A DNA stretch of 50,773 nt from Candidatus Micrarchaeota archaeon (GTDB taxonomy: Archaea > Micrarchaeota > Micrarchaeia > Anstonellales > Bilamarchaeaceae). The stretch covers positions 1 to 50,773 of the forward strand of contig JBDRPL010000020.1 of the NCBI GenBank assembly GCA_043827025.1. The letters are read 5' to 3'. Numbering within the stretch: the first letter of the stretch is position 1; the number at the start of each line of letters is the position of its first letter. Of the stretch, positions 24,001 to 30,000 are shown piece by piece. Made by a program: the position numbers.

Positions 24001-27000
24001 CTTCCTGTTGTTTGCTTCACGCAAACGCCTGAACTTGGCAAGCTCCTTTGCAATTTCCTCAAAGTACTCATTTGTCCGAACCCTAGCAACCATTAGTCTG
24101 TGGCCAAAATACACAATCAAATCACCAAGAAATGAATTGTATGGTACAATTGCTTTGAACGGCTTCCTGGAAAGAACAATGAGAAATCCGTTCTTTTCAA
24201 GAACAGTGGAAATTTTTGAAAATGTCCGGGGATGCAAACCTATATCAGTCACTCCAAAAGTTTTCTTCAAGAATGCCTTAGCCAAGTACTTTGAAACTGT
24301 CTCGTCAAACAGCTCATTGTAATTTACATCATTCTTGATGCAATACTTGAGCATCTCAAACAAATGCTGATTCTTCTCATTCATGCGCCTCTCGTATCCA
24401 TACTCATTCTTTGCAGCCAAACCTGATTCTTCCAGGCTTTCCAGAATCTTTCTAATCTTGTCGTATGCTGCCTTCTTTTGCTTGAGGCCGTGCACCACAT
24501 CAACAATCTTCCTAGGCCCGCCTTTCTCGTAGAGCTCCATGAAGACATCATATTTTGTTACCATTATGCATCACCAAAGCAGTATTGCTTAATAAAGTTT
24601 TCTATTTGGCATGATATTTCCAATAAATACGGATAAATAATGCCATATGCAGAAAGGTTAAAATGTATTTAGCATGAAAATATAACAAAAAATGGAATAT
24701 TAATGCCAAATGCTAAGAATTTGACTGCGTTCCAGCTAGTGTTCCTGCTTTCCTTTCTCCTTGGGATATTGCCATGATCTGGGATAATGGGATTATGATT
24801 GTCTCTTTAGTGGAATCTTCCTGTTTTGCAGCTTTCTTTGCCAATTCAAACCTGATGAAATCGTCCTCTCTTTTGAGGATCCTGCCGCCTTCCTCATCAG
24901 GCATGCCGTTAACAAAAACCTTGGCACCTGTTTCAATGTACTTGTCAATTAGTTCAATAAGTTTCATATTGCATCATCCTCCTTTGATCTTGTGGGTTGC
25001 TGTGGCGCTGACAACCTTCTCAAACTTCTTGGCGAATGTTTTGACCTGGGAAGCCTGCGGAACTGGCTTAGCCGGCGCAGGACTGCTTTGCCCGTTGCTT
25101 GATGTAGGAGCTGGAGTCTGGAATGTGCTTTTCCAGTCTTCCTTTTTCTCTTCCTGGGGCAAATCTTTCTTTGTTAGGATCTCTGTTGTCCCATCCTTGT
25201 TCTCCAATGTGACCCATTTGTTGTCATTGAGCTGCTTTTCAACCTCTCCCTGCAGCTGGCCTTTTGGCACATCTATCTCATCATGGCCGTTTTTGCTCTC
25301 TATGTAGAGCTTAATTTTTTCCATGGATATCACCTCGCAATTTTCCTCTATAATTGAGGTTTCTTTCAATGAAAGAAGAAACCGAAATTAGCCTACATTA
25401 TGTTATGAGGACATTACATTTAAATAAATAATAAATTTAATTAGTTGCATGTACTTCAAGGATAATAATAAATCAACCAAAAGCATGTTTTTTGGTGATG
25501 GCTATCTTTTCCATTATTATGAATTTAGCATACTACAGCAATGGCTTGAAGTGGGACAAAGGCTTCAAAAACTTTTTCACCTATATCAAGAAATATCCAT
25601 TCTTTTAGAAGAGGTAGAATCAAAACATGGGCCAATTCTTCAAAAAAAATATGATAAAGCTACCGGATTCACATCGGGAACCGCAAAGCCAATTAAACCC
25701 TTTCTGCAAGAAACTCAAATAAAGTACATAAGCCGATTAATAGAAGAATTGTTTAACAGAGATCTCGATTTAATTGTAAAAGTTGATGTCAGGATAAGAG
25801 AACTGAGACCATTTAAGAACCTAATGGAAAACTTGAAAATTTACAAAGATGGCAATTCTGTATCAAAAGAGAATGTGGAAAAATATTTTGATTATATCAC
25901 ATTAGATTCATTGCAGCATAATCTTTTGGAATTCTGGGATGATGTTAGGAAACTCCTTGATGACAAAACCAATGAGATAGCAATACCTGAACCCAAGATT
26001 GCTAATAGAGAGTTTTATCATTATTTTCTTCAAAGCAGGGATAATTATGTGGAGGGTAATGTTGAAATTGCTTTGGCTATTATAAGAAAAGCTGTCGAAG
26101 ACATCCTAACGAGATTTTGGATTCTGCATTTTGAAAAACTAAATGAAATAGATTTGAAAAAAAGACCTGAACTTGATAACCTACCTGGATTTTTAAGGAG
26201 CAAGGGTACATTGGATGACCAGGAAGTAAGGGAAGCAATGCCTTTTATTAAGTACGGCAATGCAGGGATTCATGTTTTGGGGGAAATACCAAGTGAAAAA
26301 ATATCGTCTAATGCAAAAAGGATGATTAACAATGGCATCAGCTTCGTTGATGGCATGTCAGAGAAATACATAGAAAAAATGAGATTAAAAAAGTACTGCA
26401 ATATTGAATTCACAAAGACTGGTTTCTCAATTAGATGTGGGAATATAGAGCAGTACATATGCAAACAAACTGCAGAAGACACTTTCCACAAAGATGACAT
26501 TAAGGAGTTTGAGCAGAAATAACTTAAAATTAGTCAAACAGTAAGCGAATGCTCTTTGTTCTCATGCCCTCTCAAAGAATTAAGCAGCATCTGCAACCCA
26601 ATCATCGCCGCTATCTTGTTGCCCTTCTGGACCAAGCCCTGCTCAAGGTCTTCCTCCTCCTGACAGCTGTACTCCCCTTTGTCCTGGCTGTCAATGAAGC
26701 TAAGGTTCTGCTTCAGGCTTCTTTTCGGCATGACAAAGATATGCCTGCCGGTTGCCCGTAAGTCAAGAAAATCAGTTCCTTCCTTGTGGCAATGCCTTAT
26801 CACTAGCTCCCTGGTGATATCGTTGTCAACGCACATGACAATGAAATCATAGCCTTTCAGCTGTGATTCCTTTTCAATCCGCTCGGGTTTTGCCTTAATT
26901 CCAACTGCCTTAAAGCGCTGGGCAAGTGCTTTGGCCTTAATCATGCCTGCCTCTTCAAGCTGAAAGTTCTGGTACTTTACCTGCTCAACCTCAACTATGT

Positions 27001-30000
27001 CATTGTCTGCTACTGTTATCTCCGTGAATGCGTCTATCTGGCCCTGCTCCATGCAGGCTGCAATTTCCTCAACCAGCCAAGATCCAATGCCTCCAGCTCC
27101 TACTACTAGTATTTTCATGCTTCCACCTCCTGTATCTCAAGCCAATGTTTGTCCATCTTGTCACCTTCCTGGTAAATCTCATCAGCCACAACCTTGTCCT
27201 TTGAGAGCATCAAAAGGCGCTTGGCTATGGCATCATTTCTCCCAGCATCTGAATCATCAGAGCCTATGTCAATTATGCAGAGGTACTTGTCTTGCTTGCC
27301 ATCCTTGACTGTGTAAACGCTCAAGTCATCGCCTACATAATAGATGGTCTTGCTGATGCCCTCTACCAAATATCCTTTGTCTGTCTTTTCTGCCTTGGAG
27401 AGCCTGACTGCATGCTCTATGAACTCCCTGCTCTTCCTAAGCTTGGCAAGCCTTTCCTTTTCCTGCTCCCGGTGCATGCTTACGTATGCCTTCTTGCCAT
27501 TCTCTATCAGGCCACCTATCTCTTTTGGTGAGATGCCTTCAAGCGCCTGGTACAAAAGCCGTATGGTTCTCTGCAGATATCCTCCCCCGCTCATCCCTAC
27601 CCTAACACTGTCAATATCCTTGCCAAGATTGAAAATGGCATTTGTGTTCTTCACCTTGTACTGCCTGCCTTCTATTGAGGTGTAAATCCGGTTCTTTTCC
27701 CTATGAAGGGGCAATGTGAGAAGCATGTTGGTTGCGTCATCTTCCTTCAGCAGGCAATTGTCTTCTGTCTTGTCAATCCTCAGCTTGAATTCCATCCCTC
27801 CCTGTTCCAGGGCTTTCTGGAGCTTGAGGTTGATCCTGCTAGTTTGCTTGAGCCAGGCATCATATTCTTCCTGTGATGCAGACTGCATGGAGATTTTTAC
27901 AGCTGATCCTGCATCTTCCTTGCTGATCCTGAAATTATTGATGTAAAGGTTTTTCCCCTTTTTCTCAATGCTTGCCTTGATACCCTTGACTTTCATCTCT
28001 TCCTTGCCTTCAAAGCCATAATCAATGGCACTCACTTCCCAGCTGTAGTTGTGGTGCTTGACATCTGGCTTTAGGATGTAGTCCACATAACCATGGAATA
28101 TTTCTATGAAATCCGGCCTTTCTTGGAAAAGGATGTTCTGGGATTCGATATACTCGCCAATCTTGCTCCCTGAAAATGCTATCCCTTGATAGCTGACGCT
28201 TTTCCTGGTGAATTCTATCCCTTGCCTTACTGCCTTGCCATTCTTGAAGGACTGCTCAACATTCCTGGCTAGCCTCTTCTTTGCGGTCTCTTCCTGCTCT
28301 TTTCTCTTGGCACTTAGGAGCTCAAGCCTTAATGCTGACTGCATGCTGTTGTACTTGTCTGCTGTCAAGAATATCCATTCATCTCGGCCACTGGCAAGCC
28401 TGGTTGATAGCACCTTGAGCTCTTCAACAGTGATCTTTTCGCAAAGCGGATCATCAAGCCAAATCTGGCCTTTGTCCCTCCACTCAAAAGGCAAGTAGAT
28501 CTCCCTGCCAGGGCAAACATAGTTGTATCTGGGGTCCCGGGGGGTGAAGGTTATCACTTTAAGGGCAACCCTTTTTACACGCTCCATCCACCTGCCACCA
28601 TACAGTCCGCAGCTCCTGTTCTTGTCAAAGTCTTCCTTTGCCTGGATAATGGCAACTCTCCTGTTGTTCCTGGAGAATACCTTGACTATCTTCGGCACAT
28701 TGGCTCTTGAATTGGATGATATCTCAGAATATGGCTCATCAAACAGCCAGTACAAGGCTTTCAGCTGCTTTTCCACAAGCTCGGGCCTTCGTTTCTTGTT
28801 CTTTTGCCTTTCATCGCTGCCGGCATACACATCATCGTACATGTCACCTAGCTCCTTGGGATAGTCATCTGCAAACCTGTCCATCACCCTGAGCTTCAGG
28901 TCATCGATTGACTCAGAAACATGCCTTATTTCTGCGTCCAGTGCCCTGTACTGGGCGATCTGGTGCAAAGTGTATATCTCTGCTGGCATGTCATTGAATT
29001 GCGCCAGGGTCTTGAAAAGGACCCTGCTCTTGGCTTTGGGGAGCGTTCCCTCGTGGGTTAGCCTTTTCAGTATGATCTGGTGCTTCTCATCATGGCTTAC
29101 GCAGACTGAAACTCCCTTCTTGACTGCCACAATGGCAAGGCCAGTCCTTTCAAAATGCTGCTGCTCTTCTTCGATATCCTTGAATTCTGCTTCAGTGATA
29201 TCTAGCTTTTTCAGGGAATTAAAAACCCTCAATGCATTTACGTCCATTTTCTCACCTCAGAATAAGAATGAATTGCCACCAGGGTCACGGCTAGATGATT
29301 CGCAAGGCCTGATGGTCAATCCGAAAAATATCAAAAATTAAAGCAGCTCCTCCTCTTCGATGCCGTCATAGCTCCCAGCGGCACTGCTGTTGCTGTTGCT
29401 GCTGCCATTGCTGCCTTTCCCGTTCACCTCAGAGAACCTGAGAGACTCGTATATCTTTCTTGCCAGGAGCTCAATATCAGGAAGATCCTGGGCTCTCATG
29501 CCATGGGTTGACTGCCATTTCCCATCCTTGTCCTTGTAATTTCTCTCAAAGTTCACTGTGTAGTACTCGGATTCCTTGCCTTTGAAGGTTCCTGTGTTCT
29601 TCCACACAATTGCTGTAACTCCGCCGCACCTAAGTTTTTTCTCTGGTTGGTTAGCCATTTTCATTCACGTCCTTCCAGCTTCTCTAATTGGAAGCAGGAA
29701 TTTTTCAAAAGCATGAAAATTCATGCTTCAGCCACCTTCAGCAGGATGTTTACTCCTCTTGTCTTCTTGTCAAGGCCTGTTACTTGGGTTGCGAAGCATT
29801 CCACCTTGATCCCGGCATCGATGATCGGAGCTATCTCAAATGCCAGCTGCCTTTTCACATAGCCGAGCTCAGCGCCTTTTGCAGTCAAAACTTTCACTGC
29901 ATTCCGGTCATAGGCACAACTTGGCTCTCTTTTCAGGACAAGCTCCTCTCCTTCTTTGACATCAGCCAAGGCTCCCTGGTGCAATGAGATGCCAGCTATC

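Follow-up and report, generated by a model that had tools for sequence, protein, structure and literature searches.

Archaeal sampylation by SAMP/UbaA needs no E2 and has no dedicated cysteine carrier. JAB trimming is known in sulfur-carrier pathways too, and a ThiF-family E1 together with a Gly-Gly (GG) tail is common to sulfur carriers. The PRTRC system, presumably identical to operon class 6d, is carried on mobile elements. Operon classes 6a-6e were defined in PMC1779556, the Bil system was described in PMC10557695 and the Bub system in PMC11601596, and none of them, as presented in the sections of these papers drawn on here, matches the gene set reported below. In BilABCD, the ubiquitin-like (Ubl) precursor is trimmed by a JAB, according to the portions cited of PMC10557695, and Bub (6E/DUF6527) is described in the cited part of PMC11601596 as forming Tyr/Ser oxyesters without catalytic cysteines. 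The characterised prokaryotic conjugation systems (Bil, CBASS Cap2, and Bub) are presented in these excerpts as host defence, whereas the set analysed here is borne by mobile elements.

This set lies on the minus strand of Candidatus Micrarchaeota archaeon contig JBDRPL010000020.1, of which we analysed a stretch of 50,773 nucleotides (the window), and comprises g905, g904 (E1), g902 (the GG protein), and g901. It is a real, undescribed variant of the prokaryotic ubiquitin-like conjugation systems, carried by the mobile elements themselves; a search of the literature other than subscription papers and bioRxiv supplements returned no description of it. A sister form found in phages resembles BilABCD types I/II in combining a Ubl, a Cys carrier, a JAB, and an E1 without a separate E3, and its main gene order, Ubl-carrier-JAB-E1, is the BilABCD order as given in the available text of PMC10557695. 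Unlike BilABCD, for which an IAD-AAD-CYS E1 is described in the material consulted, the E1 consists of a single adenylation domain of 194 aa, the carrier forms the end of a protein of 560-790 aa, and the archaeal form lacks a JAB and has an added small barrel protein. The set is also found among replication genes on plasmids, integrative elements, and phages rather than in the described defence islands.

Mobile-element carriage is shared with PRTRC, as are an aligned active-site cysteine (Cys152 of E1 with the SCS cysteine of a PRTRC ThiF) and PRTRC_ThiF as the best NCBIfam model for E1. Nevertheless, E1 reaches only 54.1 bits against the PRTRC_ThiF cut-off of 144.75, the neighbouring genes match no PRTRC models, and profiles of the g905 C-terminal domain (CTD) and the tag showed no similarity to PRTRC A, B, C, E, or F in the one representative operon compared. 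E1 likewise stays far under the ThiF, MoeB, and UbaA model cut-offs. In contrast to Bub, both Cys152 and Cys657 are invariant, and no BubE/DUF6527 match was obtained among the proteins scanned. The archaeal host, GG-ended tag, ThiF-type E1, and host proteasome recall SAMP/UbaA, but the score against the UbaA model NF047750 is 28.5 (cut-off 450), and the host ThiF and ThiS are encoded elsewhere.

The gene set and its mobile element

The initial annotation had placed a four-gene operon on an integrated element, and the four genes are confirmed at their coordinates (Table 1). Genes for an integrase, ParA, type III restriction-modification, Fic, SSB, and HIRAN, together with two HerA/coupling-type ATPases and a weak ArdC-N match, let the contig read as a mobile element; no att repeats or tRNA could be detected at either end of the window. 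All four genes are single-copy in the host genome, which has its own ThiF, ThiS, and proteasome separate from the element, the ThiS family match being a host gene on another contig.

Table 1. Features of the gene set and its surroundings on contig JBDRPL010000020.1
Feature	Position	Strand	Remarks
g905, 710 aa	27115..29247	-	scaffold of unknown fold and C-terminal Cys domain
g905 C-terminal domain (CTD), residues 598-710	27115..27456	-	Cys657 codon 27277-27279
g904, ThiF/E1, 194 aa	26534..27118	-	Pfam ThiF; Cys152 codon 26663-26665
g903, 357 aa, passenger	25449..26522	+	between E1 and GG gene
g902, Gly-Gly protein, 116 aa	24974..25324	-	GG C-terminus; putative ubiquitin-like tag
g901, 84 aa, small beta-barrel-like protein	24713..24967	-	putative SH3/KOW/Sm class
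Three co-oriented genes upstream of g905 (108 aa, HIRAN 99 aa, 129 aa)	29338..30406	-	HIRAN 61.1 bits

The start of g904 overlaps the stop codon of g905, suggesting coupled translation; for g902, the ATG at 25324, which follows a purine-rich leader, is the most likely start. The trio ahead of g905 is found in the same order in the two closest relatives (loci L001 and L002). E1 is the only one of the four proteins assigned to a family. The interruption of the operon by g903 was noted before and stands; this gene matched no family in four profile libraries, had no relative in the gene maps of related loci, and is AT-rich (local GC 0.37 vs. 0.47 for g905). Other passengers fill neighbouring slots in related loci, several of them inside the set (a MEDS-like gene, a LAGLIDADG gene, and others), and their frequency indicates that g903 is one such insertion, outside the system.

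E1, the GG protein, and the small barrel protein

The single adenylation domain of g904 contains GxGGxG, lacks CxxC zinc sites, and exceeds the curated Pfam ThiF cut-off of 28.1 with 63.8 bits. Both GxGGxG and S-C152-Q are invariant in 44 of 44 sequences, bearing out the previously claimed invariance of Cys152.

Homologues of g902 are 78-195 aa long and, in an alignment of 38, consist of a conserved core of ~55 aa, a variable, disordered middle insert of free length, and a conserved last strand ending in KxKGG. The GG ending holds for 116 of the 120 homologues listed out of 133 found, as the initial annotation had reported from fewer proteins, with the remainder ending in GF (n = 2), GA (n = 1), or RG (n = 1); within loci, 44 of 51 GG proteins end in GG (three in GA, two cut, two broken). 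We infer a beta-grasp fold from the alignment pattern, which is compatible with strand-strand-helix-strand-strand-strand; no significant PDB profile or Atlas match was obtained, and the Atlas model was poor. The protein is thus read as a putative ubiquitin-like tag, encoded already mature, and this tag family is linked to the phage tags (E 2.9e-6; hhalign E 7.1e-5).

The g901 protein is small and beta-barrel-like, putatively of the SH3/KOW/Sm class, with uL24 as its best PDB profile match (E 0.0076), weak KOW/SH3 resemblance, weak RimP-C SH3 matches in 3 of 34 members, and no match to the LSM families. The idea of a JAB remnant was rejected, as only 25 columns aligned at a match probability of 9.7%.

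The putative carrier g905

g905 consists of a multi-domain scaffold of ~600 aa without a known fold, a long helix, and the C-terminal Cys domain. It belongs to no Pfam, PHROG, or PADLOC family, and NCBIfam yielded a weak YdbH match alone (E 0.041). At least 80 homologues were found, the predicted structure has a pLDDT of 83.3, and homology to the phage relatives spans the full length. Cys657, already singled out in the initial annotation, is fixed in all 219 relatives, down to about 20% identity, and D672, R677, L681, and D684 are conserved along with it.

In the model, the CTD is composed of a helix, a four-strand meander with Cys657 ending strand 4, and three helices. Among its top 50 matches in overall shape, 38 are UBC/UEV/RWD folds, including the bacterial E2 BubB; Knl1, VPS37A, and Fts are counted here on the assumption that they share this fold. 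The modelled CTD therefore appears loosely E2-shaped and is a putative E2-type carrier, and g905 would be a carrier with target recognition possibly built in. In a predicted complex of two E1 copies, the tag, and the CTD, scored on the CTD, the control outscored the complex, and this prediction was set aside. A search for stand-alone CTDs among shorter proteins gave none, only three close pieces. Pfam DUF7737 (PF24879), found together with DUF4132, has structural (Atlas TM 0.54) and weak sequence likeness to the CTD, although the N-terminal regions differ. Its profile hit one of 42 CTDs at E 0.13, and one phage member scored 18.3 bits (cut-off 27, E 0.0023), so that DUF7737 is likely a distant relative of the CTD, below the curated cut-off.

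Archaeal-type and phage branches

Fetching 77 archaeal-type loci, removing four duplicates, and adding the window gave 74 loci, with some near-duplicates left. In the 39 informative loci that extend 2.5 kb or more past g905, where genes were counted anywhere in the locus (a few are reordered), E1 is always present, the GG protein in 37, and a g901-type gene, known from this branch only, in 31, which upholds the earlier observation that the set recurs elsewhere. Neither the tag family nor the carrier family has a name, and the set is placed among replication and repair genes: the 33 loci of at least 10 kb contain an ATP-dependent DNA ligase (n = 16), an unnamed 400-460-aa protein (n = 15), Ku (n = 11), SNF2-methylase (n = 10), RadC (n = 4), and HIRAN (n = 3). 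Where a title names the host, it is mostly Methanoperedens or a DPANN-type archaeon; the titles of five contigs give bacterial bins, to which these contigs may have been wrongly assigned. Searched with the CTD profile, the host phylum had a match in 1 of 401 genomes, in agreement with the initial annotation, the family containing a Methanoperedens genome in 6 of 53, and the phylum containing a Nanoarchaeia genome in 1 of 401, a patchy distribution that fits a mobile element. Locus L038 has a second g905/E1 pair, next to which lies a 75-aa ORF with a terminal AG; this ORF has no detectable relation to the tags.

Alignments of distant members led to 35 loci, all on viral contigs, the longest of which measures 204 kb; eight were repeat contigs, leaving 27. 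Tag, g905 relative, JAB, and E1 are all present in 25 of these, and the other two are cut by contig ends. The four genes usually follow this order, while in loci L079 and L080 the g905 relative precedes the tag. A DNA polymerase, a DnaB-like helicase, and a Toprim (primase-like) gene flank the set on one side and RecA on the other. No g905 match was found in PLSDB plasmids or in a phage collection queried with two distant members; viral contigs queried with the close g905 family or the archaeal tag gave no match, and the stretches fetched from three cultured phages with ThiF and one PRTRC plasmid region contained no g905, tag, or g901 relative.

The statement in the initial annotation that no JAB was known holds for the window, the host genome (91.6% complete), and the archaeal-type operons, and has to be revised for the phage sets. 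JAB motifs in archaeal-type loci belong solely to RadC and to a separate PRTRC-like operon, a JAB-E1 set that coexists on loci L003 and L004; JAB-family matches also occur somewhere in five other genomes bearing related loci. All four phage JABs tested score above the Pfam Prok-JAB cut-off, and in 20 of 23 distinct phage tags the GG is followed by a further 1-9 residues, with the remaining three lacking a tail. Operons with a JAB thus have tags of which most need trimming and JAB-less archaeal operons have mature tags, a single between-clade contrast. The g905 tree mirrors that of E1 (rho 0.93, p 0.001, 48 pairs; 0.66 in 32 archaeal-type pairs), which indicates long co-inheritance, not contact.

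Proposed mechanism and alternatives

We consider it probable that the set is a ubiquitin-like conjugation module with a full cascade, owned by mobile elements, namely archaeal plasmids and integrative elements, with its sister form in large phages. The self-contained conjugation system proposed in the initial annotation is supported by gene content, conservation, co-inheritance, the fold resemblance of the CTD, and the JAB-containing phage form, and we infer all chemical steps. Judging from ThiF/E1 family chemistry and the conserved motifs, E1, probably as a homodimer, would adenylate the C-terminal glycine of g902, and Cys152 would take over the tag as a thioester. The tag would then pass to Cys657, within the part of g905 that loosely resembles an E2, the weakest chemical step of the scheme. 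The 600-residue front of g905 would hold the target, making this protein E2 and E3 in one, and the tag would be placed on a lysine. In phages, the JAB would trim the tail after GG and probably also remove tags, whereas the archaeal branch would rely on an encoded mature tag and has the small SH3/Sm-type protein instead of an operon JAB.

From the gene neighbours, we speculate that the tag is most likely directed at proteins of DNA replication, recombination, or end joining, whether encoded by the element or by the host. One tentative extension, more doubtful than not, is that a fused E2-E3 of a new family tags DNA replication or end-joining proteins (ligase, Ku, PCNA, polymerase) so as to operate these proteins or take them over, in a pathway used by mobile elements and not by cells against them. 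This prokaryotic parallel to the control of DNA repair by ubiquitin and SUMO would exist in two forms, one reversible and found in phages, the other archaeal, without a JAB and possibly irreversible, with DUF7737 as a widespread unrecognised E2-type domain. The presence of the set in large phages, with a trimming protease added, suggests a tagging chemistry that belongs to plasmids and viruses themselves and operates beside their DNA replication and repair genes. If the chemistry is true, the set would contribute a new E2-type family, inform the origin of E1-E2-E3 cascades, and offer a lead on DUF7737.

Activation might proceed in the same way and end elsewhere, with the tag either left on g905 as a switch or attached to something other than a protein, for instance a DNA end, a nucleotide, or a lipid. 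We regard this as unlikely, though worth keeping in view: the set travels without an E3 or a fixed substrate gene, the g905 front has conserved residues (R197, Y241-N-Y243, G247-R248, N437, and R440) that could bind a ligand, and a rough alignment shows a second cysteine in 55 of 68 distant members, as against 1 of 30 close ones. However, the JAB partner and the Bil-like gene order suit protein conjugation, and g905 is only mildly basic (net charge +8).

The initial annotation also allowed for a sulfur carrier, with g902 thiocarboxylated like ThiS or MoaD and Cys657 relaying sulfur, for example, to DNA bases or a cofactor. The ThiF-family E1 and the GG tail would fit, but no rhodanese, desulfurase, or thiazole or molybdopterin synthase gene is recurrent among the annotated neighbour families, the partner has a UBC-like shape, and the element has its own GG protein beside E1, making this reading improbable and placing it below conjugation. 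A ThiF of Methanoperedens jumbo elements, possibly of the g904 family, has been read as a partner of host ThiS in the part of PMC13444090 cited here, which mentions no element-encoded GG protein.

An E1 that conjugates directly, as UbaA does with SAMPs, would leave g905 as a dedicated substrate or scaffold and Cys657 with another role. Such a division of labour has a precedent in E2-free sampylation and agrees with the weak E2 likeness of the CTD and its resemblance to DUF7737, a domain of unknown function; it is nonetheless quite unlikely, as a lone Cys fixed in every relative with fixed acidic residues nearby reads as catalytic and no lysine is among the strongly conserved CTD columns. As a RiPP precursor, a possibility also raised at the outset, g902 would be modified by the ThiF-type adenylase in the manner of microcin C. 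In favour of this, MccB heads the E1 PDB profile list (E 3.7e-8), barely above Uba2 (1.1e-7). The reading can practically be dismissed, given that the g902 core is conserved and folded-looking with its variable part in the centre and an invariant GG end, and exporter or immunity genes do not recur.

Occurrence on published plasmids

Genes of this putative conjugation set appear to be present on published, curated Methanoperedens plasmids, where three of the four are labelled hypothetical. The excerpt of PMC9674854 cited here gives, for plasmid v1, a run of helicase-methylase, a 719-aa hypothetical protein, ThiF (195 aa), hypothetical proteins of 182, 91, and 182 aa, and RadC. Some 10 kb separate this run from Orc1 and RepA, and each subfamily has six members on plasmids. 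By order and length (cf. the titled locus L008), not by sequence, the 719-aa, ThiF, first 182-aa, and 91-aa genes match g905, E1, the tag, and g901. The initial annotation was therefore right that ThiF is named and its companions are not, although RadC is named too in this excerpt. For plasmid v2, the same source reports 0, 1, 1, and 1 RNA reads for the four genes in the part cited, indicating that they are nearly silent in steady growth.

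Duplicated, split and frameshifted copies of the set

The related locus L038 carries two putative tagging modules in tandem. Directly upstream of its normal set (g905, the E1, the Gly-Gly tag and the small barrel-like protein) lies a second, very divergent g905 paralogue of 608 aa that retains the cysteine and is accompanied by its own E1 and a 75-aa ORF with an AG C-terminus; an E1 in L043 also belongs with this observation. Copies of g905, the E1 or the tag gene are split or frameshifted in L029, L049, L068, and L075, reflecting either decay or assembly error. In a rough alignment, a second cysteine in an RAxC motif (residue 415 in P0131) is retained in 55 of 68 distant g905 relatives but in only one of the 30 close, archaeal-type members.

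Genomic neighbourhood

An unnamed protein of 400-460 aa with a P-loop-like motif and a match to PHROG 1250 (E 2.6e-16) adjoins the set in 15 of the 33 archaeal-type loci of at least 10 kb and is a candidate target or partner of the set; it is absent from the window. Seven archaeal mobile elements (L006, L012, L013, L036, L042, L047, and L055) encode an end-joining pair, Ku and an ATP-dependent DNA ligase, just upstream of g905. PCNA genes occur on L038 and L077 and primase subunit genes on L007 and L061.

L003 and L004 encode, on the same element as the g905 set but on the opposite strand, a separate set of a 277-aa gene, JAB, and ThiF resembling the PRTRC operons of mobile elements, adjoined by an ORF that we presume to be reverse transcriptase-like. 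ThiF genes are also found in the cultured large phages Bacillus KLEB27-3 (L115), Acinetobacter ME3 (L116), and Vibrio D69 (L117), beside PRTRC-A-like genes in the first two; the stretches fetched from all three are unrelated to the g905 family.

Other features of the window

The C-terminal half of g903, the passenger gene between the E1 and tag genes, presumably resembles HEPN/DUF4145 domains. As g903 is convergent with the E1 gene, the tag gene may require its own promoter in an AT-rich gap. The defence block encodes a UvrD-nuclease, the methylase and the restriction enzyme of a type III system, a GHKL ATPase, a D12-class methylase, and two orphan proteins. The 734-aa orphan may, as a guess, be a primase/polymerase-type replication protein.

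Coordinates of features in the window and related loci
Location	Strand	Feature	Remark
Window 3922-17166	+	Defence block	Low GC
Window 17388-19592		734-aa orphan	No family
Window 25325-25448		AT-rich gap	
Window 25449-26522	+	g903	No family library match
Window 40082-40690		Duplication flanking 105-aa ORF	Period of ~400 bp; repeats of 86 nt and 40 nt
L003:531-3140		PRTRC-like set	
L036:4535-5899		400-460-aa neighbour	Example
L038:7293-9958		Divergent module (g905 paralogue, AG-ending ORF, E1)	
L043:128-715		E1
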